Shown here one piece after another: positions 2 to 21,385 of a DNA stretch of 24,000 bases. The position numbers and the translations under genes are program-made. The DNA is from Roseomonas nitratireducens. GTDB lineage: Bacteria > Pseudomonadota > Alphaproteobacteria > Acetobacterales > Acetobacteraceae. The stretch spans positions 1 to 24,000 of the forward strand of contig NZ_JAGIYZ010000006.1 in the NCBI RefSeq assembly GCF_017813355.1. Reading direction: 5' to 3'. Numbering within the stretch: the stretch's first letter is position 1; every line of letters begins with the position of its first letter. The notes under the pieces were generated by a model. The model worked only from the letters and a program-made list of their open reading frames with translations, was not told the DNA's origin and made no database searches.

Positions 2-1060
2 GCGCCCGTCGTCACGCCCGCGCCCGCCGCCGGGCCCGCGGCAGGGGAACGCGGCCCGTCCTCGGCCACCGAGGCCGCCGCGGCGGCGCGGCGGGAGGAA
101 CAGCGCATCCTGTCGACCGACCCGACGCTCGCGCGCGTCGGCGGCGTGCTGACGCCGCGCGGCGCGCTGTCCGTCGAACCCACCCTCGAATACGGCTATG
201 GCGAGAACACCCAGGCGACGGTGAACGGCTTCTCGATCGTGCCGGGCATCACCTTCGGCACGGTCGACATCCGGCAGAACACGCAGCGCGCGACGACGGC
301 CTCGGTCACGCTCCGCTACGGCATCACCGACCGCTTCGAGATCAACACCCGCATCCCCTACGTGTTCCGCAACGACACGATCGAGACCGGCCCGGCCGAC
401 GTGAACGCGAGCCCGATCCTGATCAGCCCGCGCGGCAACGGCATCGGCGACATCGAGTTCGGCGCCTCCTACCAGATCAACGCCGGCATGAACGATTGGC
501 CGATCTTCATCGCCAACCTCCGCGTCAAGTCGACGACCGGCCGCAGCCCCTTCGAGGTGCCGATCTACACGACGAACGACCCGCAGGGCGGCTTCATCCG
601 CGGGCTCGAGCGCGAGCTGCCGACGGGCACCGGCTTCTGGTCGGTCGAACCCGGCGTGACCGTCGCCTGGGCGTCCGACCCGGCGGTGTTCTTCGGCGGC
701 ATCCGCTACATCTGGAACATCGCGGATACGGTCGACCTGCAGAATCCGTCCGGTGGTCCCGCGACGCGCACGCGCCTCGACCCCGGCGACGCGATCGGCG
801 TGAACTTCGGCGTGGGCTTCGCGATGAACGAGCGCACCTCGATCAGCCTTGGCTACGAGCATGTCTTCGTCATGCGGTCGAGCCAGGAGGGGCGTGCCAT
901 CGCGGGGTCCACGGCCGATATCGGGACCTTCAACTTCGGCCTCGCCTATCGCGTCTCCGACAGCGTCAGCGTCAATCTCGGCGTGGGCATCGGCGTGACG
1001 GATTCGGCGCCGGATGCGCGGATCATCCTGCGCGTGCCGGTGCGCTTCAACCTGATCTGA
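2..1060 (+). CDS. Outer-membrane beta-barrel protein, 5'-partial (FapF-like / MetA-phenol-degradation-type transporter barrel, tentative)
   Basis: The frame is open from the window edge. In-frame residues ...EAAAAARREEQRILSTDPTLARVGG precede the GTG at 146, so the true start is off-window. The sequence has an amphipathic beta-strand pattern (TLEYGYG, ASVTLRYGITDRFEINTRIPYVFRND, GIGDIEFGASYQIN, SVNLGVGIGV) and a terminal strand RVPVRFNLI. The family call is from memory of PF13557-like barrels and was not searched. Confidence 0.7.
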   Translation, partial: APVVTPAPAAGPAAGERGPSSATEAAAAARREEQRILSTDPTLARVGGVLTPRGALSVEPTLEYGYGENTQATVNGFSIVPGITFGTVDIRQNTQRATTASVTLRYGITDRFEINTRIPYVFRNDTIETGPADVNASPILISPRGNGIGDIEFGASYQINAGMNDWPIFIANLRVKSTTGRSPFEVPIYTTNDPQGGFIRGLERELPTGTGFWSVEPGVTVAWASDPAVFFGGIRYIWNIADTVDLQNPSGGPATRTRLDPGDAIGVNFGVGFAMNERTSISLGYEHVFVMRSSQEGRAIAGSTADIGTFNFGLAYRVSDSVSVNLGVGIGVTDSAPDARIILRVPVRFNLI

Positions 1061-1087
1061 CGCGGCCTTTCGTGCCGCTGGGCGGAG

Positions 1088-1110
1088 GCCGCGGCGTGTT
1101 GCGCCGCGGC
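1088..1110 (+). terminator. GC-rich hairpin after the barrel gene (candidate intrinsic terminator, no U-tract)
   Basis: GCCGCGGCG (1088-1096), loop TGTTG, CGCCGCGGC (1102-1110). This is a perfect 9-bp stem starting 28 nt after the stop at 1060. Confidence 0.4.
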
Positions 1111-1159
1111 ATGATGCGTCATGCACGCGATTGGTGTGGAACGCCGCGTCCTGCACCTG

Positions 1160-1175
1160 TTAACCACCCGTTAAC
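1160..1175 (+). promoter_or_regulatory. Full CtrA-box match TTAA-N7-TTAAC
   Basis: The sequence reads gTTAAccacccgTTAACc. An additional GTTAAC half-site lies at 1210-1215. The box is an A/T-rich island in very GC-rich intergenic DNA upstream of the repeat-protein gene. Confidence 0.55.
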
Positions 1176-1478
1176 CTTTACGCCGTGAACACGCGCCGTG
1201 TGTGTCGGCGTTAACGATTCGCCGGGCGCCGCTTCATTCGCTGCTCGCGCAGGCCAACGGCCGCGCGGCGGAAAACCTCGCATCGCACGACGTCCCGCAA
1301 ACGCCCGCGCCGTGGCACGCGCGTTGCTCTCTCCGACATGCGCGAAGAAGAGTGTTGGGGAAGGAAGTCGGTGCATGGCTCGCCAACGCGTCTGGCGACG
1401 CCTTCCTCCCGCTCCGCAGTGCGCAACCCCGCCGCGACGCCGCGGCGGCACGTGACAACACGGGACGAGGAGAGAGAG

Positions 1479-2474
1479 ATGCGTGCACTTCTTCTTGCGG
1501 GTGTCGGCATCGTCGCCTTCGGCGGCGCCGCCATGGCCGAAGGCGACCGCGGCAACCACCATCGACGCTACCAGCCCGCGATCATGGACCACTACGCGGC
1601 GGCGCTCGGCGTCAACATCGGCGAGGTCCGGGGCAATAGCTCCACCACCGGCCGTGGCCAGGCCGTCGGCGTCACCACGACCGGCAGCTTCGGCGGCGCG
1701 CGCGGCGTGATGAACGTGAACCAGAACGCCGGCGCGAACAGCGCCCAGCAGAACGCCGTCGCCATCGCCTACATCGAAGGCTGCGACTGCCGGGTCGAGT
1801 TCAAGTATGGCGACGGCAACGCCAACGCGGTCGCGGGCAATGGCGGCCAGGTCGTCGGCAACAACAGCGCGAACGGCGAATACTCGCGCCGCCACCACCA
1901 CGGCGACGACGGCACCAGCGCCAGCGCGACGCTCGCCGGCAGCTTCGGCAGCGCCACCGGCATCGCCCAGGTCAACCAGAATGCCGGCGCCAACAGCCTG
2001 CAACAGAACGCCACGGCGGTTGCCTACATCGACAACGTGTCCGGCACCCGCAGGCAGGACCGCGACGCCTGGGCCATCGCCGGCAATGCCGGCCGCGTGA
2101 CAGGTTCGGGCAACAGCTCGGACGACTACCGCCACCGCGCGAACGGGTCGATCGAGGGCGCCTTCGCCGGCTTCACCGGCGTCGCCAACGTGAACCAGAA
2201 CGTCGGCGCGAACAGCCTGCAGCAGAACGCCGCGGCGCTGTCGGCGGTGGAGTACTGCAACTGCGCCACGCGCGACCTGTCCACGGTCGTGGCGGCCGCG
2301 GCCAATCTCGGCTCCGTCTCCTACAACCGCGCCGATGCGGATCGCGGCGCCGCCTTCGCGACGATCGGCGGTTCGTTCAACGGCATCACCGGCATCACGC
2401 AGGTCAACCAGAACGCCGGCGCGAACAGCCTGATGCAGAACTCCGTGGCGGTCGGCGCGGTCTACAACCGCTGA
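1479..2474 (+). CDS. Secreted Q/N/G/A-rich repeat protein, putative major fibre (amyloid-like) subunit
   Basis: The ATG at 1479 is preceded by GAGGAGAGAGAG. The Sec signal peptide is MRALLLAGVGIVAFGGAAMA|EGD. There are four copies of a 30-aa core, G-[SA]-F-x-G-x-x-G-[VI]-x-x-V-N-Q-N-x-G-A-N-S-x-x-Q-N-x-x-A. The upstream extension to 1338 in the ORF track has no signal peptide and is Arg-rich. Confidence 0.85.
   Translation: MRALLLAGVGIVAFGGAAMAEGDRGNHHRRYQPAIMDHYAAALGVNIGEVRGNSSTTGRGQAVGVTTTGSFGGARGVMNVNQNAGANSAQQNAVAIAYIEGCDCRVEFKYGDGNANAVAGNGGQVVGNNSANGEYSRRHHHGDDGTSASATLAGSFGSATGIAQVNQNAGANSLQQNATAVAYIDNVSGTRRQDRDAWAIAGNAGRVTGSGNSSDDYRHRANGSIEGAFAGFTGVANVNQNVGANSLQQNAAALSAVEYCNCATRDLSTVVAAAANLGSVSYNRADADRGAAFATIGGSFNGITGITQVNQNAGANSLMQNSVAVGAVYNR
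1683..2459 (+). repeat. Four in-frame 90-nt (30-codon) imperfect coding repeats
   Basis: The cores lie at 1683-1772, 1938-2027, 2157-2246 and 2370-2459. Their sequences are GSFGGARGVMNVNQNAGANSAQQNAVAIAY, GSFGSATGIAQVNQNAGANSLQQNATAVAY, GAFAGFTGVANVNQNVGANSLQQNAAALSA and GSFNGITGITQVNQNAGANSLMQNSVAVGA. They are spaced 85, 73 and 71 codons apart. Confidence 0.9.
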
Positions 2475-2488
2475 TCCTGTCCTGACGG

Positions 2489-2519
2489 CGCCGGCGGCCC
2501 GCCCAATGGGCCGCCGGCG
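2489..2519 (+). terminator. Strong intra-cluster hairpin (candidate attenuator/partial terminator)
   Basis: CGCCGGCGGCCC (2489-2500), loop GCCCAAT, GGGCCGCCGGCG (2508-2519). This is a perfect 12-bp G/C stem starting 15 nt after the stop of the repeat-protein gene. No U-tract follows. Confidence 0.45.
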
Positions 2520-2551
2520 TCCCCCTGCCCAAGCAGAACGAGGACGACGCC

Positions 2552-2884
2552 ATGAAGATCGCGACCATCGTCACCGCAGCGCTGCTCGGCACGGCGGCCT
2601 CGGCGCAAACCGTCCATGCTTCGGACCCCGCCGCGCTGTTCGAACGCCTCACCCCCGTGGGGCAGGGCGAACTGGCCCGTTCCTCGGGCCGCGCCGGCTT
2701 CGACCAGGATTCGGCGAACCTCGCCAATGTGCACGGCAACCATGTCGGGTCGCACAGCGTCACCGGCAGCAACAGCATCTCGGGCTCCCTCAGCGGCAAT
2801 GCGGGCGTGACCACCGTGTTCCAGAACACGGGCAACAACAGCGTGTTCCAGTCCGCGACATCCATCACGATCAACATGCGCTGA
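2552..2884 (+). CDS. Small secreted protein with a single copy of the fibre repeat (putative minor subunit/nucleator)
   Basis: GAGGA lies 9 nt upstream of the ATG. The signal peptide is MKIATIVTAALLGTAASA|QT. The C-terminal core at 2783-2872, GSLSGNAGVTTVFQNTGNNSVFQSATSITI, aligns with the 30-aa repeat of the upstream gene. Both proteins end 3-5 residues after the last repeat (..VYNR* and ..NMR*). Confidence 0.8.
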   Translation: MKIATIVTAALLGTAASAQTVHASDPAALFERLTPVGQGELARSSGRAGFDQDSANLANVHGNHVGSHSVTGSNSISGSLSGNAGVTTVFQNTGNNSVFQSATSITINMR

Positions 2885-2893
2885 GACGCGCCG

Positions 2894-3670
2894 ATGCTGC
2901 CGCCGCGTATCGCCGTGCTGATGCTCCCCGCGCTGCTCGCCGCCTGCGCGGCCGGGCGCGGCGACGCCACGCTGCCGGTCGAACCGATGCGCGCGGGGCA
3001 GGTGGAGCTCTCCCTGCCGGACCTCGACACCGGCGGCGCCAACCTCTCCGTTCCGGTGCGTAGCGTGCTCGCCCGCCGCTTCGCGCGCACGATCAAGCAG
3101 CGCTTCGACTTCTCCTGCGGCTCGGCCGCACTCGCGACGCTGCTGACCTTCCACTACGGCATGCCGACAGGGGAGGAGGCGGTGCTGCGCGACATGATCG
3201 AGCATGGCGACGTGGAGCGCATCCGCAGCGCGGGCTTCTCGCTGCTCGACATGCAGTCCTATCTGGCGCGGCGCGGGCTGCGGTCCAACGGCTACCGCCT
3301 GCCGCTCGACAGGCTGGCGGAAGTGCGCGTGCCGGCGATCGCGCTGATCGACACGAACGGCTATCGCCATTTCGTCGTCGTGCGCGGCGTCACCGCCGAC
3401 CGCGTGCTCATCGGCGATCCGAACCTCGGCACGCGCACTATGCCGCGCGTGCGGTTCGAGGAGGCCTGGAACGGCGTCCTGTTCGTCATCCTCGACCGCC
3501 CGGACCTGGGCCAGGCGAGCTTCGGCCTGGCCGAGGATTGGGGCGTGCGGTCGCGCGCGCCCGGCCTGCTCGTGCGCGACCAGATGGACCGGGGCATATC
3601 CGGCCTCGGCATGCCGGCGCCGCTCGTCCTCAATTCGGGCGTGCCGCCGACGCGTGGCTTTCTTCCCTAA
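2894..3670 (+). CDS. Lipoprotein peptidase C39-family cysteine protease (FapD-like position)
   Basis: A lipobox is present: LPALLAAC. C39 hallmarks are intact. These are the oxyanion Gln and catalytic Cys in KQRFDFSCGSAALATLL, His in GYRHFVVVRG, and Asp in LIGDP. No ABC-transporter domain is fused. Confidence 0.85.
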   Translation: MLPPRIAVLMLPALLAACAAGRGDATLPVEPMRAGQVELSLPDLDTGGANLSVPVRSVLARRFARTIKQRFDFSCGSAALATLLTFHYGMPTGEEAVLRDMIEHGDVERIRSAGFSLLDMQSYLARRGLRSNGYRLPLDRLAEVRVPAIALIDTNGYRHFVVVRGVTADRVLIGDPNLGTRTMPRVRFEEAWNGVLFVILDRPDLGQASFGLAEDWGVRSRAPGLLVRDQMDRGISGLGMPAPLVLNSGVPPTRGFLP

Positions 3671-3701
3671 CGCCTGCCTTGAAGGGAGAGGAGAAGCTGT
3701 C

Positions 3702-4313
3702 ATGACCCGAGGGACCGTGTTCCAGGCGTCGCTTCTCGCCATCACGCTCGCCGGCGGCGCCGCCATGGCGGCCGATGCGCCGGGGCGGCGCGACATGGCC
3801 GATGCCTACGCCCGCGCGCTCGGCCTGGACATCGGCGGGCAGGCGGAAGCGCTGGACATCGTGGCCGCCGCGGTGCCCGAGGAGGAACTCGGCGACATGC
3901 GCGGCGGCTTCGCGCTGCCCGGCGGCCTGTCCGTCGCCTTCGGCTTCGACATCGAGACGCGACTCGGCGGGCAGGTTGTGCAGCGCCTGACCCTGCCGGC
4001 CTCGGTCCTCGGCCCCGGGGGGCGCATGGAGGCGATCCGCATCGTCGAGGGCAGCGCGACGCGGCTCGCCGATCCCGCCGCCGGCCCCGCGGTGGCCGAG
4101 GGCGTCTTCAACGGCGGCGCGACGCGCATCGTGACGCAGGCGGGCATCGGAACCGTCCTCGGCGTCGTGCAGAACAGCCGGGACGGGCAGGTCGTGCAGC
4201 AGCGGTCGAACCTGCAGGTGGACATCTCCGGCATGGGGCGGCTGCTCGACGCGACGTCGAACCGTCGCGTCATGGACCAGGCGCTGCCGCGGCGCGGCGG
4301 GTGGGCACGGTGA
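3702..4313 (+). CDS. Secreted protein of unknown function (cluster accessory)
   Basis: The ATG at 3702 is preceded by GGGAGAGGAGAAG. The signal peptide is MTRGTVFQASLLAITLAGGAAMA|AD. I recognise no family. Confidence 0.7.
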   Translation: MTRGTVFQASLLAITLAGGAAMAADAPGRRDMADAYARALGLDIGGQAEALDIVAAAVPEEELGDMRGGFALPGGLSVAFGFDIETRLGGQVVQRLTLPASVLGPGGRMEAIRIVEGSATRLADPAAGPAVAEGVFNGGATRIVTQAGIGTVLGVVQNSRDGQVVQQRSNLQVDISGMGRLLDATSNRRVMDQALPRRGGWAR

Positions 4314-4612
4314 GGCGCGTCCTTCTCGCGTCGCTGCTGGTCGCCGCGGCGCTGGCCGCCGCCGCGGGCGGCGCGCGCGCCTTCGAGCCCGAGCCCGGGG
4401 CGATCGCGCGCATCGGCGGGCTCGAGGTGCTGAAGCCGCTCGATGCGCAGGATCTCGGCCGCCAGCGCGGCGGGCGGCTGCCCGCGGTGACGCCCGGGAT
4501 GCAGGCGCCCGCGCCGATGCTGCGGCTGTGGGACGAGATCGGCCGGCCGACCCGCCCGCAGGACTCCGGTTCCCAGGGCGTCGTGACTTCGACCCATCGC
4601 GGCGCGCGCTGA
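4310..4612 (+). CDS. Small secreted protein of unknown function
   Basis: The GTG at 4310 overlaps the upstream stop (GTGA), which suggests translational coupling. An alternative GTG lies at 4301. The signal peptide is VRRVLLASLLVAAALAAAAGGARA|FEP. Confidence 0.55.
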   Translation: MRRVLLASLLVAAALAAAAGGARAFEPEPGAIARIGGLEVLKPLDAQDLGRQRGGRLPAVTPGMQAPAPMLRLWDEIGRPTRPQDSGSQGVVTSTHRGAR

Positions 4613-4640
4613 AAACCACGCAACAGGAGGAAGTTCGCCC

Positions 4641-5093
4641 ATGAGGATGTCCGCGACGCTCGCACTCGGCCTGCTGGGCCTGCTCGCCGCCGGCTGCGCC
4701 CAGCCGGGACCGGAGACGGTCGCCGCCCCCGCGCGGCTCGAGCCGGAAGTCACGGGTGGCCAGCGGATGAGCGGCGAGGAGTTCCGCGCGGCGGTCTTCG
4801 GCAACACGCTCGACCGCCGCCTGCCGAACGGTGCGCGGCTGACGATGCATGTCGCGGCGGACGGGTCGCAGCGGCTGCGCCTGACGGCGCCGGGCGGCCA
4901 GCGTGGGGCCGATCGTGGCCGGATCGAGATCCGCGGCAACGAGATTTGCTCCTCATGGGAACGGATCGACCAGGGCCAGCCGACCTGCTTCGCCTATTTC
5001 CGCCTGGGCGCCTCGCTCGTCGCGATCGACCTCGCGGGGCAGATCGAGCCGACTCGCTTCGAGGTGCTGCGCGGCAATCCGGAACGGATCTGA
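4641..5093 (+). CDS. Lipoprotein (possibly DUF995-like), last gene of the same-strand cluster
   Basis: AGGAGGAAG lies upstream of the ATG. The lipobox is LLGLLAAGC. Conserved-looking Trp/Cys positions occur in IRGNEICSSWERIDQGQPTCFAYF. The family guess is from memory. Confidence 0.7.
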   Translation: MRMSATLALGLLGLLAAGCAQPGPETVAAPARLEPEVTGGQRMSGEEFRAAVFGNTLDRRLPNGARLTMHVAADGSQRLRLTAPGGQRGADRGRIEIRGNEICSSWERIDQGQPTCFAYFRLGASLVAIDLAGQIEPTRFEVLRGNPERI

Positions 5094-5333: not shown

Positions 5334-5540
5334 ATGTCCACTGGCACCATCAAGTGGTTCAACGCCACCAAAGGCTACGGCTTCATCCAGCCTGACGACG
5401 GCACGAAGGATGTGTTCCTGCACATCTCCGATGTCGAACGCTCCGGCATCGCGTCGCCGCAGGAAGGCGACAAGCTCGAATACGACATCCAGCGCGGTCA
5501 GCAGGGCAAGATGTCCGCGACCAACCTGCGCAAGGCCTGA
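5334..5540 (+). CDS. CspA-family cold-shock protein
   Basis: MSTGTIKWFNATKGYGFIQPDDG..DVFLHIS contains the RNP1 (KGYGFI) and RNP2 (VFLHI) motifs. The length is 68 aa. Confidence 0.97.
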   Translation: MSTGTIKWFNATKGYGFIQPDDGTKDVFLHISDVERSGIASPQEGDKLEYDIQRGQQGKMSATNLRKA

Positions 5541-5583: not shown

Positions 5584-5610
5584 CGGCGCCGCCCTTCAGG
5601 GACGGCGCCG
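5584..5610 (+). terminator. Hairpin downstream of the cold-shock gene
   Basis: CGGCGCCGCCC / TTCA / GGG-A-CGGCGCCG forms 11 bp with one bulged A. It lies 44 nt after the stop. Confidence 0.45.
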
Positions 5611-5632
5611 CCAAGAAGAACGAACGAAATCC

Positions 5633-5767
5633 ATGACCATCACCATCACCAGCCCGCGCGCCACCCCGGCGCGCGGCGCCTCCATCCCGGCACCGAAGTC
5701 CCCGCGCCCCGGCACGGGCCTCTCGGCCGCCGAGATCCGCCAGATCGTCCTCGATATCCTTGGATGA
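5633..5767 (+). CDS. Candidate 44-aa small protein (absent from the ORF track)
   Basis: The product is MTITITSPRATPARGASIPAPKSPRPGTGLSAAEIRQIVLDILG*. By hand count, 40 of 44 codons end in G/C, which is the coding signature of this genome. The Shine-Dalgarno is weak and I recognise no family. Confidence 0.35.
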   Translation: MTITITSPRATPARGASIPAPKSPRPGTGLSAAEIRQIVLDILG

Positions 5768-5817
5768 TCCGGCGCCAGCCAGCCACGCCCACTGACGAAG
5801 GACAGCAGTAAGCAAAG

Positions 5818-6273
5818 ATGCAAGGTTCGAAGCGCGACGACTTCAACACCCGCCGCGAGACCGCGGCGCTCGCCAAGCAGGCGATGATCGAGCGGTTCCG
5901 CACCCAGCCGCGCCCGGATGATCCCGTGGTGCAGGAAAGGCTGGCCGCGCAGCGCGCCTTCGCCGAAGCGCGCGACCAGCGCCGCGCCGAACGGGTCGCC
6001 GAGCGCGCGGCCCAGGCCGAGGCCGCCGCCGCCGAGGCGAGGCGCCTTGAGGCCGAGGAAGCCGCGCGCCAGGCCGAGCTCGCCCGCCTCGCCGCGGAGG
6101 AAGCGCAGCGCCAGGCCGAGGCCGCCCGCCAGGCCGCCGAGGCGGCGATGGAGAGCGAACAGCGCGCCGTGCTGCTGGATGCCGAGAAGAAGGCCCGCGC
6201 TCTTGCGCTGGCCGCCGAGCAGAAGGCGCTGCGGGACGCGCGCTACGCCGCGCGCCAGGCCCGCCGCAAGTAG
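5818..6273 (+). CDS. Ala/Glu/Arg-rich coiled-coil protein, DUF6481-like
   Basis: The N-terminus FNTRRETAALAKQAMIERFRTQPRPDDPVVQERLAAQRA.. is followed by a long AEEAARQAE-type helix. This matches my memory of the DUF6481 family. Confidence 0.7.
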   Translation: MQGSKRDDFNTRRETAALAKQAMIERFRTQPRPDDPVVQERLAAQRAFAEARDQRRAERVAERAAQAEAAAAEARRLEAEEAARQAELARLAAEEAQRQAEAARQAAEAAMESEQRAVLLDAEKKARALALAAEQKALRDARYAARQARRK

Positions 6274-6354
6274 AACAGGGCGGCGGCGCCCCAGGGCGCC
6301 GCTGCTTCATCCGGGTGGCCGGTCCACGGCCGCCTTCGAACAGGACCTCCCCCC

Positions 6355-6540
6355 ATGGCACATCCCGCCATCGACGCCGCATCGGCCAAGCCGGACGCCA
6401 TGACGGACGAAGACGTCGCGGTGCTCGCGAAGCGGCATCGCATCTCGCCCGCCATCGTGCGGGAGATCATGCGCCGCACGGGCACGACCGACCGTTCCCA
6501 GGTGGAACGGGAGATCGCCAAGGGGAAGGCGCGCCGCTGA
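6355..6540 (+). CDS. Small hypothetical protein (61 aa; weak DUF3606-like resemblance)
   Basis: Third-position G/C is high (about 54 of 61 codons by hand count). The region DEDVAVLAKRHRISPAIVREIMRRTG looks helix-turn-helix-like. Confidence 0.5.
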   Translation: MAHPAIDAASAKPDAMTDEDVAVLAKRHRISPAIVREIMRRTGTTDRSQVEREIAKGKARR

Positions 6541-6682
6541 CATCGGCTGCCACGCGCGCATCCCCGCGCGCCGGCGGCATTCCTATCGTCACGAAGGCAC
6601 GCATGGCCGGCTGAACGCCGCGCCGTGCGATGCCGCGTTGCGTCCCGCATCGGCGGGGCAGTGGCTGGGATGATGGGAAGGG

Positions 6683-6756
6683 TGGCTGGGGGACCTGGAT
6701 TCGAACCAAGGCTGCCCGGGTCAGAGCCGGGAGTTCTACCGCTAAACTATCCCCCA
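6683..6756 (-). tRNA. tRNA-Gln (anticodon CUG)
   Basis: The reverse complement folds as a cloverleaf: TGGGGGA TA GTTT-AGCGGTA-GAAC T CCCGG-CTCTGAC-CCGGG CAGC CTTGG-TTCGAAT-CCAGG TCCCCCA G CCA. U1:A72 and G73 are typical of tRNA-Gln, and the CCA end is encoded. Confidence 0.95.
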
Positions 6757-7023
6757 ACGGGTCCCGATCTCTGTCGGGAGCGGGCACATAGCAAAACCGG
6801 GCGCCGCCGGCAACCTCCGCCATGCGGGACGCCTCCCGCGCCGCCGCCGTCACCGCGCCGGCCCGCGGCGCGCGGGCCCGCCGGCCAAGGTTCCTCGGCC
6901 CCCGCTCGGCGCGCCGATCCGCCGCCACTGGCCACGTACCGTGGAAAGCGCTTGCCCCGCGCCCCACATGTCCGGATCATTCTGCGGCGACCCGCGCCTC
7001 CCGTCGCCGGTCCGGATTGCGAG

Positions 7024-8082
7024 ATGCCCGAGATCCTGCCCCGTTGCGCGACCGATGCCCCGCCCGAGCGGCCGGCGCGCGCCGAGCATGCGCCGCCGGC
7101 CTTCGCCGCGCTCGACCTCGGCACCAACAATTGCCGGCTGCTCATCGCTGCGCCCGGCCCGGGCGGGTTCCGCGTGCTCGATTCCTTCAGCCGGATCGTC
7201 CGGCTGGGGGAAGGGCTCGCCCAGACGGGGCGGCTGTCCGACACCGCGATGGACCGCGCCGCGGCGGCGCTGCGCGCCTGCGCCGACAAGCTCGGCCGCC
7301 GCCCGGTGCGGCGGCTGGAGGCGGTGGCGACCGAAGCCTGCCGCCGCGCGGAGAACGGGCCCGCCTTCCTCGCCCGCATTGCCGAGGAGACGGGGCTCCG
7401 CCTGCGCATCATCTCGGCGCGGGAGGAAGCGGAACTCGCGATGGAATCCTGCGCGCCGCTGCTCGAGACGGTGGACCGGCGCGCATTGCTGTTCGACATC
7501 GGCGGCGGCAGCACCGAGATCGCCTGGATCCGCGTGCCCGCGGGCGCGGCCGATGGCGCGCCGCCGGACCTGATCGGCTATGTCTCGCTGCCGCTCGGCG
7601 TCGTGACGCTCGCCGAAAGGGCAGGGCAGGACTGCTTCACCGAACGCGGCTTCTTCGAGGTGGTGGAGGAGGTTGCGACGCATCTCGCCGAATTCGACCG
7701 CATCCACCGCATCGGGCAGGAGATCCGCGCCGGCGGCGTGCGGCTGATGGGCACCTCCGGCACCGTGACGACCCTCGCCGGCGTGGCGATGGCGCTGCCG
7801 CGCTACCGGCGGCCGCTGGTCGATGGCAAGACGCTGGATTGCGAGGCGGCGGACCTCGCCCTGGGAGACCTGTTCGCGCTCGGTCGCAAGGGGCTCGCGG
7901 AACATCCCTGCGTCGGGCCTGACCGGGTGGAATTCGTGCTGCCGGGCTGCGCGGTGTATGCCGCGATCCGCCGGGTGTGGCCGACGCCGCGCCTGACGGT
8001 GGCGGATCGCGGGCTGCGGGAAGGGATGCTGACCCGCATGATGCGGGCCGAGCGCGCCGCGCCGCGCCGCCGCGCACGATAG
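7024..8082 (+). CDS. Ppx/GppA-family phosphatase (exopolyphosphatase-like)
   Basis: AALDLGTNNCRLLIA (phosphate-1 motif), LFDIGGGSTEI and GTSGTVTTLA are ASKHA-fold motifs. The start is set at ATG 7024 because the track's 6625 start runs through the tRNA gene. Confidence 0.85.
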   Translation: MPEILPRCATDAPPERPARAEHAPPAFAALDLGTNNCRLLIAAPGPGGFRVLDSFSRIVRLGEGLAQTGRLSDTAMDRAAAALRACADKLGRRPVRRLEAVATEACRRAENGPAFLARIAEETGLRLRIISAREEAELAMESCAPLLETVDRRALLFDIGGGSTEIAWIRVPAGAADGAPPDLIGYVSLPLGVVTLAERAGQDCFTERGFFEVVEEVATHLAEFDRIHRIGQEIRAGGVRLMGTSGTVTTLAGVAMALPRYRRPLVDGKTLDCEAADLALGDLFALGRKGLAEHPCVGPDRVEFVLPGCAVYAAIRRVWPTPRLTVADRGLREGMLTRMMRAERAAPRRRAR

Positions 8083-8782: not shown

Positions 8783-9394
8783 CTATTTCCGCCGCACGAT
8801 CCAGCCCGACATCTTTCCGGTCTTGAACCGTATCGTCCCCGCGCTGAGTTCCGTCGGGTGCACGTCCCCGTCGCCGGGGTCGTTGATCATGGCGTAGCTC
8901 TTGCCGCCGAAGTCGGATGTTTCGTCCACCAGCACGAAATGCGCGCCGCCGCCGTCCCACATGACATGCGCGATGCAGGGCGCGCCGGCTGCGACCGCGC
9001 CCTTGATCGCCGCCCCCATGCCCGCTTCGCCCGCCCAGTGGCATTCCCACGCGCCGAGGCCGAGCTTCGCCAGCACCTCGGGGTGCTTCTTGGCGTTGGT
9101 GTAGGACGTGCCGTCATAGGTGCTGCCGATCACCTCGCCATAGATCTTGTAGACCTCAGGCTCGGACTTCACGGCGTAGTCGATCGCCGACTTGGCCAGC
9201 GTCGGTCCGATGTACTTGCCCACGATGGGCACGACCGACACCTGCGCGCCGGCCGCCATGCCGGCGAACATCATCCCCTTCTTCATCTTGAAGTTCGCCA
9301 TCAGGATGCAGGCGATGCCGCAGGAATTCACGTTCTCCTGCTTGTGCACCACATGGGCGGTCAGGAAGCGCGTGAAGCGGATGAACCAGGCCAT
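8783..9394 (-). CDS. Leaderless C39-like (papain-fold) cysteine peptidase domain protein
   Basis: HKQENVNSCGIACILMA carries the Gln-x5-Cys-Gly motif. GGGAHFVLVDE carries the His and MINDPGDG the Asp. There is no signal peptide. The protein is Lys-rich and the gene looks less GC-rich than its neighbours. Confidence 0.7.
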   Translation of the reverse strand: MAWFIRFTRFLTAHVVHKQENVNSCGIACILMANFKMKKGMMFAGMAAGAQVSVVPIVGKYIGPTLAKSAIDYAVKSEPEVYKIYGEVIGSTYDGTSYTNAKKHPEVLAKLGLGAWECHWAGEAGMGAAIKGAVAAGAPCIAHVMWDGGGAHFVLVDETSDFGGKSYAMINDPGDGDVHPTELSAGTIRFKTGKMSGWIVRRK

Positions 9395-9424: not shown

Positions 9425-10165
9425 CTAGGCCATTTTCGTCTCTGCGCCATGAAGCGTTGCAGCGGGGCGCCGAAGGAAGGACAGCGTGCCGCGCTCCGGC
9501 GCGTCGACGCGCTCCCGCGCGAGGGTGTGGGTCGGCGCGAGCAGCGCCTCGATCGCCGCGCGATCCGCGAGGCTGTGGTATTCGAGGTGGACCGTCCCGA
9601 CCTCGGCGAGCAGTCCGCCGAGCGCGCGAAGGATGGGCAGCTCGGCGCCTTCCGTGTCGATCTTCAGCAGGTCGAAGCCGGCGCAGCCGATGGCCGTGGC
9701 GGCTTCCTCGGCGAAGCGGCCGGCATGGCGCAGTGCGACGTCGACGCGCTCATTCGCGATGCCGGGCGCCGGAAGGTCGTAGAGCGTGCTGACGACCGAG
9801 ATCGAGGAGGAGGCGAAGGGCGCCTGCCCATCCCGGTCGAGCAGCGCGACCTGGTGCGCCGTGCAGCGGCCGATCCGCCGCGCATTCTCGGCGAGGATGG
9901 GGAAGGTCGCCGGGTCGGGCTCGACGCAGACGATCGTCGCCTCCGGATAGGCCAGCCGGAAGAAGGCGGCGGTGATCCCCTGGTTGGCGCCGACATCGAG
10001 GATGGCCCGCGGCGCGGCGGCGCCGGGAATCGGGGCGTAGGTCCCGTGCTCGAACACTTCCCGCAGCACGAGCCTGGAGCTCGTGTCGTTGCGCAGCTCG
10101 ACCTCGAGCCGCGCGGCGTCGTTGGAGATCGCCACCGGGACCTTCGCTGCGTGACGGAAGGACAT
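9425..10165 (-). CDS. FkbM-family SAM-dependent methyltransferase
   Basis: ILDVGANQGITAAFF..VCVEPDPATFPILAENA and FDLLKIDTEGAELPIL are FkbM hallmarks. The start is chosen at ATG 10165 (MSFRH..), which has AGGGG upstream. The track's longer form up to 10267 was rejected. Confidence 0.85.
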   Translation of the reverse strand: MSFRHAAKVPVAISNDAARLEVELRNDTSSRLVLREVFEHGTYAPIPGAAAPRAILDVGANQGITAAFFRLAYPEATIVCVEPDPATFPILAENARRIGRCTAHQVALLDRDGQAPFASSSISVVSTLYDLPAPGIANERVDVALRHAGRFAEEAATAIGCAGFDLLKIDTEGAELPILRALGGLLAEVGTVHLEYHSLADRAAIEALLAPTHTLARERVDAPERGTLSFLRRPAATLHGAETKMA

Positions 10166-10216
10166 GCCAACCCCTGATCCGGCCTGTTCCGGGCGCCCCG
10201 GCGGCCCCGCGCGTGA

Positions 10217-11908
<1,692 letters not shown>

Positions 11909-16168: not shown

Positions 16169-17236
16169 TCAGTCCGTTCGGCGCGGCCGCGGCGGTGGCA
16201 GGCGGAGATCCCCGACGGGGCTCTCGCCATAGGCGGCACGGTACATGCGCGCGAAGCGGCCAGGATTGGTGAAGCCGAAGCGCAGGGCGAGCTCCGTGAC
16301 CGTGCCGCGCGCCTCGCCCGAGCGGAGGGCCTGCCGCGCCGCCTCGAGCCGCGCCCGGCGAATGGCCTCCAGCGGCGTCATGTCGCGGAATCGCTGGAAG
16401 CCTTGTTGCAGGCTGCGCACGCTGCAGCCCGCCGCGTCGGCGACGTCGTGAAGCGCGATCGGTGCCTCGACATTGGCCCTGATGTACGCTTCCGCGCGCT
16501 TCACGGTGGCGGGGATGGCGGGGCTCGACGCCTGCAGCAGGCGCTGCGAATGGCTGTGCGGCACGGCGTGCAGCAGCGTGTAGACGAGCAGGTCGGAGAA
16601 GGACCGGCTGGCGATCGCGTTGCCGGCGAAGGGCAGGGGCGACGCCATTTCCTCCGCCATCAGCCGCAGCACGCGCTGCAGGCTCTGCGCCGGGCCGGTG
16701 GACCAGTCGAAGACGGGCTCGAAGGCCAGGTCCTTCCCGACGGGACCACCCAGCGCGGCCGACAGGCGCTGGACCAGCGCCGCGGCGGGGATCCAGATCG
16801 CCAGCCTCTCGTGATCGCCGGTGGCGGCAAGGCTCGTGCCCGGCACGCCGCGGTAGATCAGCCCGAGCTTCTCGTCGATCCGGGGCAGCGACTTCGCGCC
16901 GGGAATGCCGGTGCAGTCAAGCGCGCCGCGGCGCACCGCGGTCAGGCAATAGTCGGGCAGGCCGTCATTCGCGATCATCAGCTTCGCGGCCAACCGGTCC
17001 GCGATGTAGGCGACGTCGAACTCCCCCACGCCGCTCGCGCCGCGGAGGGCGACGGTCCCGCCGGGGGCGTCGAGCGTGCCGGCGCGATCCTGGATGCGAT
17101 ACCGCAGCGACTTGAACTTCGGCGCGAGGAAGTGGGGCTCGAGCTGCGGCCAGTAGACGCCGCTCTCCAACTCCCGCAGGTCGCCGATGCGCGCGGCCTT
17201 GAACCCCTGGGGCGGGCTGGCGGTCTCGCCGTTCAT
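16169..17236 (-). CDS. AraC-family transcriptional regulator
   Basis: The C-terminal double helix-turn-helix reads [22 protein letters not shown]...[28 protein letters not shown]. The N-terminal region looks like an AraC-type effector-binding domain. Confidence 0.9.
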
Positions 17237-17591
17237 CCTTGGCCGCGGCCCGCTGATCGGCGGCTGCGCGCGGGCCGCGCATCAGGGCACGGCCGAGGCG
17301 GGCGCGCCCGGAGCCGCGAAGACTGTCGCCACGGGATCGGCTTTGGCATCGGCAAGCCCCCCAGGGCGCGATGCCGCCCGGAAGTCCGGGCCGGCGCGCC
17401 ACCACACAGGCGCGATGATGGCGCTTCGCGGCCCGGCGCAAAAGCGGTTCGCGCGATCCTTCCGCGCATGGGCTGTTCCGGGGGAGGCGGGTGCCCGATG
17501 CGGCCTGGTCCGGCGGGAAGCAGCCCGGCCTGCGGGCGGGGGAAGGCGGGGTCGGTCTTGCCCGCGCCGCGCCTTCATGCTTCACGCCGCC

Positions 17592-19172
17592 ATGGCCGAC
17601 CAGATCGCTGATTCCGTCCTCCGGCACGACCGGATCCTGATCCTCGACTTCGGCAGCCAGGTGACGCAGCTCATCGCGCGCCGCCTGCGCGAGTCCGGCG
17701 TCTATTGCGAGGTCTGGCCGTTCCACCACGCGCCGGAGGAACGCATCCGCGCCTTCGCGCCCAAGGGCATCATCTTCTCGGGCGGGCCGGCCTCGGTCAC
17801 CGAGGGCGCGAGCCCCCGCGCCCCGGACTGCGTGTTCGAGATGGGGCTGCCCATCCTCGGCATCTGCTACGGGCAGCAGACGCTGGCGCACCAGCTGGGC
17901 GGCACGGTGGAAGGCGGGCACGCGGCGGAATTCGGCCGCGCCTATGTGGAGGTGACGGGCGACTGCGCGATCACCCAAGGCGTCTGGGCGCCGGGCGCGC
18001 GCGAGCAGGTCTGGATGTCCCATGGCGACCGCATCACCGAACTGCCGCCGGGCTTCCGCGTGGTGGCGAGTTCCGAAGGCGCGCCCTTCGCGCTGATCGC
18101 CGACGACAAGCGCCACTACTACGGCACGATGTTCCATCCGGAGGTGGTGCACACCCCGCATGGCGCGGCGCTGCTGCGCAACTTCACCCACCTGGTCTGC
18201 GGCTGCACCGGCGACTGGACCATGGGCGCCTTCCGCGCCGAGATGATCGAGCGCATCCGCGCCCAGGTCGGCTCCGGCCGCGTGGTGTGCGGGCTTTCGG
18301 GCGGCGTCGATTCCTCGGTGGCGGCGGTGCTGATCCATGAGGCGATCGGCGACCAGCTGACCTGCATCTATGTGGACCACGGGCTGATGCGCGCGAACGA
18401 GAGCGCGCAGGTCGTCGCCACCTTCCGCGACCGCTTCAACATCAAGCTGGTGCACCGCGACGCGTCCGACCTGTTCCTCGGCCAGCTGTCCGGCGTCACG
18501 GACCCCGAGGTGAAGCGCAAGACGATCGGGCGGCTGTTCATCGAGGTGTTCGAGGAGGAGCAGAACAAGATCGGCGGCGCCGACTTCCTGGCGCAGGGTA
18601 CGCTCTACCCCGACGTGATCGAGAGCGTGTCGGCCACCGGCGGGCCTTCGGTGACGATCAAGTCGCACCACAATGTCGGCGGCCTGCCCGAAGGCATGCG
18701 GATGAAGCTGGTCGAGCCGCTGCGCGACCTGTTCAAGGACGAGGTGCGCGAACTGGGTCGCGAACTCGGCATCCCCGAGGAGATCGTCGGCCGCCATCCC
18801 TTCCCGGGGCCGGGGCTGGCCATCCGCATCCCCGGCGAGGTGACGCGTGAGAAGGCGGATGTGCTGCGGCGCGTGGACACGATCTTCCTCGAGGAGATCC
18901 GCGCCGCGGGGCTGTACGACGCGATCTGGCAGGCCTTCGCGGTGCTGCTGCCGGTCCGCACGGTGGGCGTGATGGGCGATGGCCGCACCTACGACCAGGC
19001 CTGCGCGCTGCGCGCCGTGACCTCGACCGACGGCATGACGGCCGATGTCTATCCCTTCACGATGGAATTCCTAACGCGCGTGGCGAACCGCATCGTGAAC
19101 GAGGTCCGCGGCATCAACCGCGTGACCTACGACATCACGAGCAAGCCGCCGGGGACGATCGAGTGGGAATAA
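17592..19172 (+). CDS. guaA: GMP synthase (glutamine-hydrolysing)
   Basis: [20 protein letters not shown], the GATase GICYGQQ motif, the ATP-PPase SGGVDSSV motif, and the C-terminus KPPGTIEWE*. The start is ATG 17592 or 17577, both in frame. Confidence 0.95.
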
Positions 19173-19200
19173 TTTGTGCCCATCCGAGGGTATCCGAAAC

Positions 19201-19270
19201 TACGCCGGAATACGCTCTAATACACTGAAAAACAAAAATAAATGAGCCAAGGTCTATCGAGGTCTATCGG
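19201..19270 (+). repeat. Short phased and tandem direct repeats in the att-proximal A/T-rich region
   Basis: TACGCcggaa TACGCtctaa TACACtgaaa (19201-19230) has a 10-bp period. The tandem pair GGTCTATCGA / GGTCTATCGG lies at 19251-19270. Confidence 0.6.
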
Positions 19271-19335
19271 TGGGCATAGAACGCGTCTGTCGGGTCTGGT
19301 GACGGACCCGCCCCCCGTTGATCATCCGGAAAATC

Positions 19336-19380
19336 GAAAGTACCGTCAGAGCGACCGAGGCCAATGACGGTACTTTTTTC
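19336..19380 (+). terminator. Canonical rho-independent-type terminator hairpin with T-tract
   Basis: AAAGTACCGTCA (19337-19348), a 16-nt loop, TGACGGTACTTT (19365-19376), followed by TTTC. The stem is a perfect 12 bp. The structure is unusual for this genome because it is A/T-containing and U-tailed. Confidence 0.6.
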
Positions 19381-19466
19381 AGCCTTACACGCTGAAATTA
19401 AACAGATTTCTCCGCCTGCAGCCTCCAAAAACCGCGTGACGGTCCTTTTTCCGCGAGGAGGCCCAA

Positions 19467-20723
19467 ATGTTGACGGACGCAGCACTCAAGTGCCTGAAAC
19501 CAAAAGCCAAAATGTACAAGGTGACCGATCGTGACGGCATGTATGTGCGCGTCGCGCCGACAGGCGGCATCTCGTTCAGGCTCGACTACCGGCTGAACGG
19601 CAGGCGGGAGACCGTCCATCTCGGCAAGTATGCCCGAGATGGGATCTCACTCGCCCGGGCGCGCGAGCTGTGCCTGGACGCGAAACGGATGATCGCCGAG
19701 GGGCGGTCCCCCGCCATAGAGAAGCAGCGGGAGAAGCGCCGGATCAAGGAGGCTAAGAGCTTCGGCGAGTTCGGCGAGAAGTGGCTGACGGGCGCCCCGA
19801 TGGCCGACAGCACACGAGCCATGCGCCGCGCGATCTTCGAGCGTGAACTCAAGCCCGTCTGGCGAAACCGTTTGCTGACCGAGATCACGCCTGACGACCT
19901 GCGCGCCCACTGCGCCAAGATCGTCGAACGGGGCGCGCCGGCGACGGCCATCCATGTGCGGGATATCCTGAAGCAGATCTACGCCTTCGCAATTCTCCAC
20001 GGCGAAAAGGTCGCGAACCCGGCCGATGACGTTGGTCCTGCCTCGATCGCCACCTTTACGCCGAAGGATAGGGCGCTGTCGCCGACCGAGATCCGCATCA
20101 TGCTCAAGCAGCTCGAGCATGTCGCGACGCTGCCGACGATCCGTCTCGGCATGAAGCTCTACCTCCTCACCATGGTCCGGAAGAGCGAATTGCAGGACGC
20201 GGTCTGGGATGAGGTGGATTTCGAGAACGCCGTCTGGACGATCCCGAAGGAGCGCATGAAGCGGTCGAAGCCGCACAATGTCTACCTGTGCCGGCAGACC
20301 CTCGACATCATGATTGCGCTCAAGACCTGCGCCGGCAATTCAAGGTATCTGCTGCCGTCCCGCTACGATGCGGATGCGCCGATGTCGCGGGCGACCTTCA
20401 ACCGGGTCACCTACGCTGTCGTCGAACAGGCCAAGAAGGAGGGGCTGCCACTGGAGCCTTTCACCGTGCATGACCTGCGCCGCACGGGCTCGACGCTGCT
20501 CAATGAGCTGGGCTTCAACCGCGACTGGATCGAAAAGTGCCTGGCGCACGAGGACGGGCGTTCATCACGCGGCGTCTACAACAAGGCTGAATATGAGGTT
20601 CAGCGTCGCCACATGATGCAGGAATGGGCTGACACCGTCGATGCCTGGGTCGAGGGCCGGAAGTATGTTCCGACGCTGCTGCCGACAGCCATGCCGTCTA
20701 TCGCGCTTGATCCTGCCCTTTGA
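19467..20723 (+). CDS. int: Tyrosine recombinase / phage P4-type integrase with N-terminal arm-binding (DUF4102) domain
   Basis: GAGGAGG lies upstream. LTDAALKCLKPKAKMYKVTDRDGMYVRVAPTGGISFRLDYR is the arm-binding domain. HDLRRTGSTLL..LAH..RGVYNKAEY carries the catalytic R, H-x-x-R and Y. Confidence 0.95.
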   Translation: MLTDAALKCLKPKAKMYKVTDRDGMYVRVAPTGGISFRLDYRLNGRRETVHLGKYARDGISLARARELCLDAKRMIAEGRSPAIEKQREKRRIKEAKSFGEFGEKWLTGAPMADSTRAMRRAIFERELKPVWRNRLLTEITPDDLRAHCAKIVERGAPATAIHVRDILKQIYAFAILHGEKVANPADDVGPASIATFTPKDRALSPTEIRIMLKQLEHVATLPTIRLGMKLYLLTMVRKSELQDAVWDEVDFENAVWTIPKERMKRSKPHNVYLCRQTLDIMIALKTCAGNSRYLLPSRYDADAPMSRATFNRVTYAVVEQAKKEGLPLEPFTVHDLRRTGSTLLNELGFNRDWIEKCLAHEDGRSSRGVYNKAEYEVQRRHMMQEWADTVDAWVEGRKYVPTLLPTAMPSIALDPAL

Positions 20724-20973
20724 CCGGGCGGGACTTGCGCTTGGTGACGTCGGGATGCTGTGCGCGAGGGATTGGCTTCGCGCGCCGCGCCAGCAACCAA
20801 GCGTGGACCTCGGCGAGGTCCCAGACGATGCAGCGCGGCGACAGCGCGAAGCGGCGTGGGAATTCGCCGCGCTGCTCCATCTCGTAGATTGTGCTGTCGG
20901 CTAGGGGCACCATCTCGCGCAGTTGGTGCCGCCGGATTGTCTTCCTGATCTCCAAAGGCTCGCGGTGACCCAT
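20698..20973 (-). CDS. AlpA/Xis-family helix-turn-helix protein (putative excisionase/regulator)
   Basis: The ATG at 20973 is preceded by TAAGGAG with a 7-nt spacer. LREMVPLADSTIYEMEQRGEFPRRFALSPRCIVWDLAEVHAWL matches the AlpA pattern. The track's 151-aa form was rejected. Confidence 0.85.
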   Translation of the reverse strand: MGHREPLEIRKTIRRHQLREMVPLADSTIYEMEQRGEFPRRFALSPRCIVWDLAEVHAWLLARRAKPIPRAQHPDVTKRKSRPVKGQDQAR

Positions 20974-21354
20974 ACCCAATCTCCTTAGCGGCTGTCGCTG
21001 GCGATTGAGAACGATAGGTGCCGATGCCGGAAGTCCCTCCCGAGTGGCGTGCGGCAATTTCGGGCTCTGGCGTAGAAAACGGCGGGTCATTTTCAGTCCT
21101 GACAGCGCGGCCGGACATCCGTCAGCCCACAGAATCTGCACGACTCGCCGCACGCGTTCCGCGCCGTAATTGCGCTGTTCAGATCACGCACCATTTACTG
21201 CTTTCACCGGCGAGATGCGATCCAGAAGTCCGCTAGCGACGTAGCAACAGTCGAATGTGTGACACCTAAGGATTTCGTGGGCGGCGGTAGCGAGGAGACG
21301 GAGAAGACCCATAATCTGATCGGAACAGTTCTCGGGGGCTGACGGGGCTACGTT

Positions 21355-21370
21355 TGCAAAGACCTTTGCA
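21355..21370. promoter_or_regulatory. Palindrome TGCAAAG-AC-CTTTGCA, candidate LysR operator
   Basis: Perfect 7-bp inverted arms end 16 nt upstream of the lysR GTG start at 21386. The palindrome is embedded in cgTTTGCAAAGACCTTTGCAtc. Confidence 0.4.
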
Positions 21371-21385
21371 TCATGGGGAACCATC

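Follow-up and report, generated by a model that had tools for sequence, protein, structure and literature searches.

The window analyzed here is a stretch of 24,000 nucleotides (24 kb) from the start of contig NZ_JAGIYZ010000006.1 of Roseomonas sp. PWR1, alias Roseomonas or Neoroseomonas nitratireducens. Its left end carries seven genes that a first-pass annotation had compared with the Fap system, assigning them to a host that looked alphaproteobacterial; the strain does belong to the Alphaproteobacteria, order Acetobacterales. In Pseudomonas, Fap is the functional amyloid encoded by fapABCDEF (Dueholm 2010/2013, Rouse 2017). As had been proposed, the seven open reading frames (ORFs) encode exported proteins and lie in a row on the + strand, and the cluster runs from a fapF-like barrel gene through a promoter to a four-repeat subunit, a small subunit, fapD-like and fapE-like genes and two further genes, p6 and p7. 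Its features are as follows (here and below, a slash marks a predicted cleavage point):

2..1060, + strand: fapF-like outer-membrane secretion barrel, 5' end cut by the window edge
1159..1215, no strand assigned: three GTTAAC hexamers (first and second 11 bp apart), candidate upstream activator site
1313..1327, + strand: predicted sigma-54 (-24/-12) promoter TGGCACGCGCGTTGC, 152 nt upstream of the ATG at 1479
1479..2474, + strand: repeat-bearing major subunit, FapB/C family, of 331 aa with four imperfect repeats
2552..2884, + strand: small subunit, 110 aa, with a Sec signal, an E-L-A-R-S-S-G-R motif and one C-terminal Fap-type repeat
2894..3670, + strand: fapD-like C39 cysteine peptidase, predicted lipoprotein (LLAAC)
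3702..4313, + strand: divergent fapE homologue, 203 aa, with the motif E-L-G-D-M-R-G-G/F and a C-terminal Q/N-rich segment
4310..4612, + strand: p6, small exported protein of 100 aa with the motif D-L-G-R-Q-R-G-G, lineage-specific accessory
4641..5093, + strand: p7, lineage-specific accessory lipoprotein of 150 aa, predicted to form a small eight-stranded beta-barrel

Five of the seven ORF products match NCBI gene products (MBP0463806-MBP0463811) exactly in sequence and length; all five are named 'hypothetical protein' there, save the 'C39 family peptidase', and the 331-aa product is 100% identical to MBP0463806 / WP_209351195. Read directly off the sequence, Sec-type N-termini with A-x-A sites are present in the products of 1479-2474 (..AAMA/EG), 2552-2884 (..ASA/QT), 3702-4313 (..AMA/AD) and 4310-4612 (..ARA/FE), and lipoboxes in those of 2894-3670 (LLAAC) and 4641-5093 (LAAGC), the latter in agreement with the lipoprotein expected at that position.

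Relationship of the proteins to Fap components

All seven proteins were searched with Pfam and NCBIfam profiles at E values up to 1, and NCBIfam scores were read against the equivalog cut-offs of 700 bits for FapF, 330 for FapD and 190 for FapB. As Pseudomonas reference we used a fap locus (L086, fapA-F) found via a FapF sequence rebuilt from a PDB alignment and by genomic context. Related loci were collected by scanning species-representative genomes with an alignment of the peptidase, which returned at least 590 stretches; ORFs were called in the 80 best of these and searched with iterated profiles, and the 86 sequences examined comprise 85 fetched loci and the window.

The parallel drawn between the first gene product, an outer-membrane beta-barrel, and FapF was borne out. 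The barrel matches NCBIfam FapF (NF058560) with an E value of 1e-49 and 169.5 bits over profile positions 120-420 of 420, and phmmer aligned its residues 52-348 with the crystal-structure sequence of Pseudomonas sp. UK4 FapF (PDB 5o67) at 7.5e-38. It contains ELPTGTGFW, which includes PTG, a conserved motif described for FapF and COG4313 channels (PMC6173800). The orthologue in Roseomonas sp. HF4 (L001) has 446 aa, and the full-length orthologues of this strain and of a metagenome-assembled genome (MAG) of the Stellaceae (L004) start with a signal peptide followed by heptad-like Q/R/E/L-rich stretches that look, by eye, like a coiled coil. By its profile score, which stays under the 700-bit cut-off, the barrel is a member of the FapF family and not an orthologue of FapF.

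These family searches against Pfam, NCBIfam and the PDB FapF sequence led us to reject two other readings, both of which we regard as close to excluded: that the genes encode a curli-type system (Csg, type VIII secretion), or that the barrel is a COG4313/MetA-type hydrophobic uptake channel beside unrelated genes. The best Pfam match of the barrel is indeed Phenol_MetA_deg (PF13557, 1.3e-9), but the FapF model and the FapF crystal sequence match it far better, a barrel homologue stands together with the C39 gene in 79 of the 86 sequences, and C39 peptidases beside COG4313 uptake channels were unreported as of 2018 (PMC6173800). With curli the cluster shares Sec-exported, imperfect Q/N-rich repeats like those of curlin, a minor subunit resembling a nucleator and an outer-membrane channel of its own; the channel is of another family, however, a peptidase is involved, and none of the seven proteins matched a Csg family in Pfam or NCBIfam, so that of the resemblance to curli once suggested only the general logic is left.

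The product of 2894-3670, predicted to be a lipoprotein C39 peptidase corresponding to FapD, proved to match Pfam Peptidase_C39 (PF03412, 3.9e-20) and NCBIfam FapD (NF058616, 5.4e-46, 156.6 bits), its lipobox having been given above. Q69, C75, H159 and D175 are invariant in a four-sequence alignment and are the predicted catalytic residues. Further NCBIfam matches include NHLM and bacteriocin ATP-binding cassette (ABC) transporters, and the second-best families of peptidase and barrel are FilB (1.9e-31) and FilC (8.9e-21), from the putative Fil pilus system of Acinetobacter, in which a periplasmic C39 peptidase is likewise paired with a FapF-like barrel. The window proteins fit the Fap models better than the Fil ones, and the other five match no Fil family.

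The 331-aa protein contains four 35-aa core repeats at residues 66-100, 151-185, 224-258 and 295-331 (nt 1674-1778, 1929-2033, 2148-2252 and 2361-2471), which follow the pattern G-S-F-x-G-x-x-G-[IV]-x-x-V-N-Q-N-x-G-A-N-S-x-x-Q-N, are identical to one another at 17-24 of 35 positions and were not seen at the DNA level by Tandem Repeats Finder. Q, N, G and A make up 48.6% of the mature protein. The earlier description of a Sec-exported protein rich in these residues and built of repeats thus stands, except for the repeat unit, which had been put at 30 aa: the 35-aa core alternates with a weaker conserved segment, A-x-A-G-N-x-G-x-V-x-G-N, giving a true period of about 70-80 aa. Multiple imperfect Q/N repeats are given as the hallmark of Fap and curli amyloid subunits (PMC9268375).

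No model in an older Pfam release matches this protein; a newer one annotates PF27129 'FapBC' on the identical protein and on all 82 homologue clusters found. In NCBIfam the matches to FapB (9e-6, 25 bits) and FapC (4e-5) are both weak. Aligned by hhalign, the family matches Pseudomonas FapB with 92% probability (E 6.2e-7, 156 columns), repeats 2-4 falling in register with the three FapB repeats, whereas the comparison with Pseudomonas FapC is not significant (E 0.14). The subunit, which had been taken as the counterpart of FapC, is by these alignments far more similar to FapB. In the Pseudomonas locus, Pfam FapBC is recorded for FapB and not for the adjacent FapC (5593-6426), and it is recorded for every alphaproteobacterial four-repeat protein found, a distribution that fits a closer relationship of the four-repeat proteins to FapB. 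The UniRef names in the family are 'Adhesin' and 'Heme utilization protein'.

The suggested structure prediction returned a confident all-beta fold: AlphaFold2, run with 39 homologues, gave long paired strands with a predicted local distance difference test (pLDDT) score of 83.9 and a predicted template-modelling (pTM) score of 0.82. A Foldseek search of the PDB ranked a FapC fibril (9u4u) first, followed by beta-helix proteins and a CsgA; no match, that to FapC fibrils included, reached significance (E 5e-3, TM 0.10-0.16). The model is compatible with a stacked-beta fibre subunit and is no proof of one.

The next gene had been described as encoding a 110-aa exported protein with a single copy of the same repeat, and this description is upheld by the alignments. 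Its terminal repeat is in register with those of the 331-aa protein (10-13 of 35 residues identical), and hhalign joins the two families at 95.2% probability (E 2.7e-8). The small family is joined to the FapE-like family at 95.6% (E 1.2e-8), and the alignments indicate that these two families are homologous to each other; to FapB repeat 2 the similarity is weak (E 0.005, 33 columns with 39% identity). Iterated searches with hidden Markov models (HMMs) merged the small and FapE-like families with that of the repeat subunit, and profile drift was rejected as the explanation, since separate alignments show shared segments, namely the leader motif and the Q/N repeat. The 110-aa protein matches no Pfam or NCBIfam family at a meaningful E value, and nearly every one of the 85 fetched loci has a homologue of it directly upstream of its C39 gene. 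We consider the protein a candidate nucleator or primer with a FapB-like role; a FapB with a single repeat has been reported in Vibrio (PMC3792158). It carries a FapE-like leader, and the FapB of the Pseudomonas locus is without one.

The product of 3702-4313, one of three partners that had seemed unrecognisable, can be placed by a weak link: it is, as far as its alignments and position tell, a divergent FapE. The 43-member alignment of its family matches Pseudomonas FapE in hhalign with 79.6% probability (E 1.5e-5) along ELxxxRG[GR]F-x-x-P-G-x-x-VSFGI, that is, the leader motif and the next strand. A phmmer search of 1.84 billion representative proteins gave 118 homologues, and 5 of the 116 that were scanned match NCBIfam FapE (NF058559; best E 1.4e-7). 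A global HMM of the family finds Pseudomonas FapE weakly (7e-4, with six sequences searched and a heavy composition bias). The gene comes right after that of the C39 peptidase, the place that fapE has after fapD in Pseudomonas.

For the other two partners the first judgement stands, p6 and p7 having no counterpart in Pseudomonas Fap. p6 could start at GTG 4301 (103 aa) or GTG 4310 (100 aa), has a conserved R-L-W-D-E-I segment, matches nothing in Pfam or NCBIfam, and is related to the small family through the leader motif alone (hhalign E 2e-4). It occurs downstream of the fapE-like gene in 16 of the 86 sequences, mostly alphaproteobacterial ones. p7 is the final cluster gene in 9 of the sequences examined and has just 32 homologue clusters, none with a Pfam match of its own, the named sources being Roseomonas, Neoroseomonas, Caldovatus, Acetobacteraceae and an unclassified alphaproteobacterial MAG. 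Its AlphaFold2 model (pLDDT 87.3) has weak Foldseek matches in the PDB to lipocalin-like lipoproteins (E 6e-3, TM about 0.5). One p7 homologue, P0233 (240 aa), is annotated with Peptidase_C39, being either a gene fusion or a miscalled peptidase-lipoprotein gene.

A leader motif and a sigma-54 promoter

In three of the proteins a motif of double-glycine type sits behind the Sec signal peptide: E-L-G-D-M-R-G-G/F in the FapE-like protein (nt 3885-3908), D-L-G-R-Q-R-G-G in p6 (nt 4451-4474) and the leader-like E-L-A-R-S-S-G-R/A in the 110-aa protein (nt 2669-2692). The classical double-glycine leaders cut by C39 peptidases have a hydrophobic residue at -12, E at -8, L at -7, a hydrophobic residue at -4 and G-G before the cut; the position preferences of the present motif are V/L at -12, E at -8, L at -7, M/A/V/L/I at -4, R at -3, G at -2 and -1, and F at +1. 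A strict L...RGG is found in 73 of 85 FapE-like proteins (mean of shuffled sequences 2.0, maximum 7), 28 of 82 small proteins (shuffle mean 0.1), 4 of 14 p6 proteins (0.1) and 0 of 39 major subunits (0.3). At the aligned position, Pseudomonas FapE (L086) reads E-L-A-E-L-R-G-R/F, with R-G-R where the FapE-like protein of the window has the textbook R-G-G.

Since the known C39 specificity coincides with this leader pattern on the FapE-like, small and p6 proteins, we infer that FapD-type peptidases cut FapE-type proteins after the motif and, in the present system, would also cut the small subunit and p6. In published work, FapC secretion needs the catalytic cysteine of FapD, and FapE is the sole Fap protein without N-terminal peptides in whole-cell mass spectrometry. 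According to the 2017 study of FapF and FapD, Fap proteins do not contain canonical C39 sequences, and what FapD cuts was left undecided there (PMC5557850, PMC6173800). From the motif a precise cleavage site can be predicted, at which FapD would license secretion by cutting FapE-like proteins; no description of the conserved small and FapE-like partners or of their motif was found in the literature searched.

Three small exported proteins with such motifs, next to a C39 domain of the kind otherwise typical of bacteriocin ABC exporters (and matched here by the NHLM and bacteriocin transporter models), could also mean that the cluster exports bacteriocins or signalling peptides, short peptides such as the 45-residue C-terminus of p6 with its L-W-D-E leaving through the barrel and the repeat proteins being incidental. 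We think this very improbable. The position pattern and the catalytic domain are those of double-glycine export, but the motif lies behind a Sec signal and at times follows a long linker, the peptidase lacks an ABC transporter domain and carries an export signal of its own, being a free periplasmic or lipid-anchored enzyme, and the export route crosses the outer membrane via a beta-barrel. The Sec signals of the substrates would place cleavage in the periplasm, which is where FapD acts (PMC5557850). Moreover, the cluster has no immunity or modification genes, and p6 is present in the minority of sequences given above, whereas repeat-bearing proteins are nearly universal.

Between the barrel gene and the repeat subunit lies the predicted promoter, whose TGGCACGCGCGTTGC box is the sole zero-mismatch sigma-54 match in the window and is aligned and conserved in two related loci (L001 and L007). 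Among 83 related loci, an exact sigma-54 box upstream of the C39 gene is found on the coding strand in 19 and on the opposite strand in 1. The three GTTAAC hexamers are the only ones in the window, where 0.41 would be expected and 0 of 100 shuffles reach 3; in Roseomonas sp. HF4 they are partly conserved, TGTTAACC-N3-CGTTAA being kept at the same place. A gene for a sigma-54 activator adjoins the cluster in this strain, in a metagenomic genome (L002) and in the Stellaceae MAG, preceding the gene set in all three, and such a gene also flanks the fap locus of Pseudomonas (L086). The hexamers may be the binding sites of a sigma-54 enhancer-binding protein. In P. fluorescens, transcription of fapA is under the direct control of such a protein, BrfA (PMC13101488). 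Downstream of 5093 no intrinsic terminator was detected.

Related loci and interpretation of the operon

The survey of gene neighbourhoods that had been proposed showed that the gene set recurs in related genomes. The same six or seven genes are found in Roseomonas HF4, Neoroseomonas eburnea, Caldovatus (C. sediminis) and the Stellaceae MAG, and the set is also present in the metagenomic genome L002. The gene order does differ from fapABCDEF in the window, as first remarked, but the leading position of the barrel is no fixed trait: in related loci its gene either lies upstream of the others, on their strand or on the opposite one, or comes last, like fapF in Pseudomonas. A separated fapF had already been noted as a common deviation in Fap operons (PMC3792158).

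Beyond these relatives, a core of four genes, encoding a small protein, a C39 peptidase, a FapE-like protein and a FapF-like barrel, is present in nearly all of the 80 best loci, which span the Alpha-, Beta-, Gamma- and Deltaproteobacteria (for example Sphingomonas, Massilia, Paraburkholderia, Nitrosomonas, Oceanisphaera and Geotalea). The small proteins of the core have about 110-150 aa and end in ...G-[IL]-x-x-V-I-Q-N-[ST]-G-x-N-V-x-I-Q-N.... Upstream of the core, the gene varies widely in the loci inspected; its product is often long, of low complexity and equipped with a single terminal Q/N motif. Three such proteins, each ending in a single Fap-like Q/N motif, are Gly-rich in Paraburkholderia (L067, 6003-7262), Asp/Asn/Ser-rich in Nitrosomonas (L048, 6251-7375) and His-rich in Oceanisphaera (L077, 6930-7565). 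The small, FapE-like and cargo proteins of four loci of this kind matched no Fap or Fil model in NCBIfam. This variety suggests that the proteins upstream of the core are interchangeable cargo for one export module. Co-localised fapD and fapF homologues beyond the classical Fap hosts had been noted in 2018 (PMC6173800), and presumably it is the four-gene core that underlies them. Judged by its sequence, the operon of the window is a branch of this large FapD/FapF-associated family, with a multi-repeat cargo of the FapB/C type, as in Fap.

This raises the possibility that the module is a generic one for secretion across the outer membrane and that the 331-aa protein, as one of its swappable cargoes, is a non-amyloid beta-solenoid adhesin or surface protein, monomeric or attached to the cell. 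The breadth of the core over four classes, the varying upstream genes with their single Q/N motifs and lack of Fap matches, the 'Adhesin' and 'Heme utilization protein' names, and the ordinary beta-helix proteins that follow FapC in the Foldseek ranking all agree with such a role. We nevertheless find it unlikely, as the cargo of the window has four FapB-like repeats, three of them in register with those of FapB, instead of a single motif, it is covered by Pfam FapBC, and its imperfect Q/N repeats are of the kind that marks Fap and curli subunits (PMC9268375).

Our preferred interpretation, with a probability of about 0.72, is that the cluster is a divergent, sigma-54-controlled operon of an alphaproteobacterium for the secretion and assembly of a Fap-type fibre. 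Most of the Fap parts list proposed for it, the barrel as FapF, the peptidase as FapD, the repeat subunit as FapB/C and FapE, was recovered, and FapA was not. As in Pseudomonas, there are a FapF-family barrel, whose full-length orthologues have a coiled-coil-like N-terminus, an exported FapD-family C39 peptidase with the invariant Q, C, H and D, imperfect Q/N repeats of the FapB/C family, a FapE-family gene directly after fapD, a Sec or lipoprotein signal on every product, and probable control by sigma-54 and an enhancer-binding protein. Unlike Pseudomonas, the host is alphaproteobacterial, fapA is missing, the four-repeat major subunit is nearer to FapB, the second subunit combines one repeat with a FapE-like leader, the peptidase is a predicted lipoprotein, p6 and the lipocalin-like p7 are added, and the barrel gene stands upstream of the promoter and not last. 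That the 331-aa protein forms amyloid would follow by analogy with Pseudomonas.

Several points weigh against the Fap-type interpretation. The NCBIfam scores are far under the equivalog cut-offs (FapF 169 vs 700, FapD 157 vs 330, FapB 25 vs 190), which marks the cluster as a divergent relative rather than an orthologous operon. Alignment of the repeat family with FapC is not significant, phmmer of the repeat protein against the PDB gives no FapC match, the structural match to FapC fibrils is not significant, and a monomer model, being a prediction, cannot show amyloid behaviour. The product of 3702-4313 has no direct match in NCBIfam or Pfam, and its link to FapE consists, besides gene position, of about 30 aligned N-terminal columns and transitive matches; the small subunit of the window has S-G-R in place of R-G-G. 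No FapA was found among the cluster proteins with NCBIfam, and p6 and p7 are unlike FapA in hhalign; a lack of fapA is the most frequent variation among accepted Fap operons (PMC3792158), so that a missing FapA does not exclude membership. Cleavage, secretion and fibre are all predicted from the sequence.

In the Fap-type system as we picture it, the gene of an enhancer-binding protein would lie just beyond the left edge of the window, matching its place in Roseomonas sp. HF4, and its product would bind the GTTAAC sites and activate the promoter at 1313-1327. All products would cross the inner membrane via Sec, as their signal peptides indicate. Once in the periplasm, the membrane-anchored C39 peptidase would remove the double-glycine-type leader (E-L-x-x-hydrophobic-R-G-G) from the FapE-like protein, the small subunit and p6, and this removal would, by homology, license export via the FapF-like barrel, which in Pseudomonas is trimeric and plugged. 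By analogy with Pseudomonas Fap, the small single-repeat and FapE-like proteins could then prime the four-repeat subunit, outside the cell, to polymerise into an amyloid-like fibre of stacked-beta type, which would act as a biofilm matrix or an adhesin.

The suggestion that this is an undescribed variant is upheld for the host class and the parts list and is weakened in other respects, the repeats being included in the newer Pfam FapBC and fapD/fapF pairs being known (PMC6173800); what the cluster represents is a known system in divergent form and no new kind. It is of interest for the host class, for the parts list (a leader-bearing subunit with a single repeat, a lipoprotein peptidase, p6, p7 and no FapA) and for the leader motif. 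Fap had been described as known from Beta-, Gamma- and Deltaproteobacteria, in agreement with the 2013 survey, where Alphaproteobacteria are absent and Fap is described as evolutionarily young (PMC3792158); we found no paper reporting Fap in Alphaproteobacteria, the 2018 genus list being only partly legible. The cluster would extend the Fap family to this class, in Roseomonas/Neoroseomonas, Caldovatus, Acidocella and the Stellaceae MAG.

A broader proposal, which we put forward tentatively and at somewhat below even odds for its parts taken together, is that the four-gene core constitutes a widespread pathway for secretion and assembly at the outer membrane, in which removal of a double-glycine leader from the FapE-like and small 'primer' proteins in the periplasm would license export, many different cargo proteins with one or more C-terminal Q/N strand motifs would be exported, and Pseudomonas Fap amyloid would be a specialised branch. 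If so, the textbook R-G-G leaders of the alphaproteobacterial operon would identify the substrates of FapD. The large family of C39-plus-barrel export modules, of which the operon looks like one member, bears on how Gram-negative bacteria move aggregation-prone proteins over the outer membrane.

Remainder of the window

Directly downstream of the cluster lie genes for a cold-shock protein (5334-5540) and a DUF6481 protein (5818-6273), followed by tRNA-Gln(CTG) at 6683-6756 on the - strand. The latter is overlapped by an ORF on the + strand (6625-8082), whose real start is probably near 7045, where its Ppx/GppA domain begins.

A second C39-like protein is encoded at 8783-9394 (-). This orphan of 203 aa has a papain-type fold and no signal peptide, shows the motifs Q..C (QENVNSCG), H (GAHFVLV) and D (NDPGDG), and matches Pfam Peptidase_C39 just over the cut-off (7.3e-6, 26.3 bits) and nothing in NCBIfam. 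Its gene adjoins one for an FkbM-type methyltransferase (9425-10267, -) and has no evident link to the Fap-like cluster.

Towards the right end of the window (19000-24000), immediately after guaA (GMP synthase, 17187-19172), the G+C content falls from about 0.70-0.75 to 0.60-0.64. The low-GC stretch opens with a tyrosine integrase gene (19467-20723) and further carries genes for a LysR regulator (21386-22384) and the conjugation protein TrbI (22556-23755, -); its appearance is that of a genomic island or integrative conjugative element that has inserted next to guaA.

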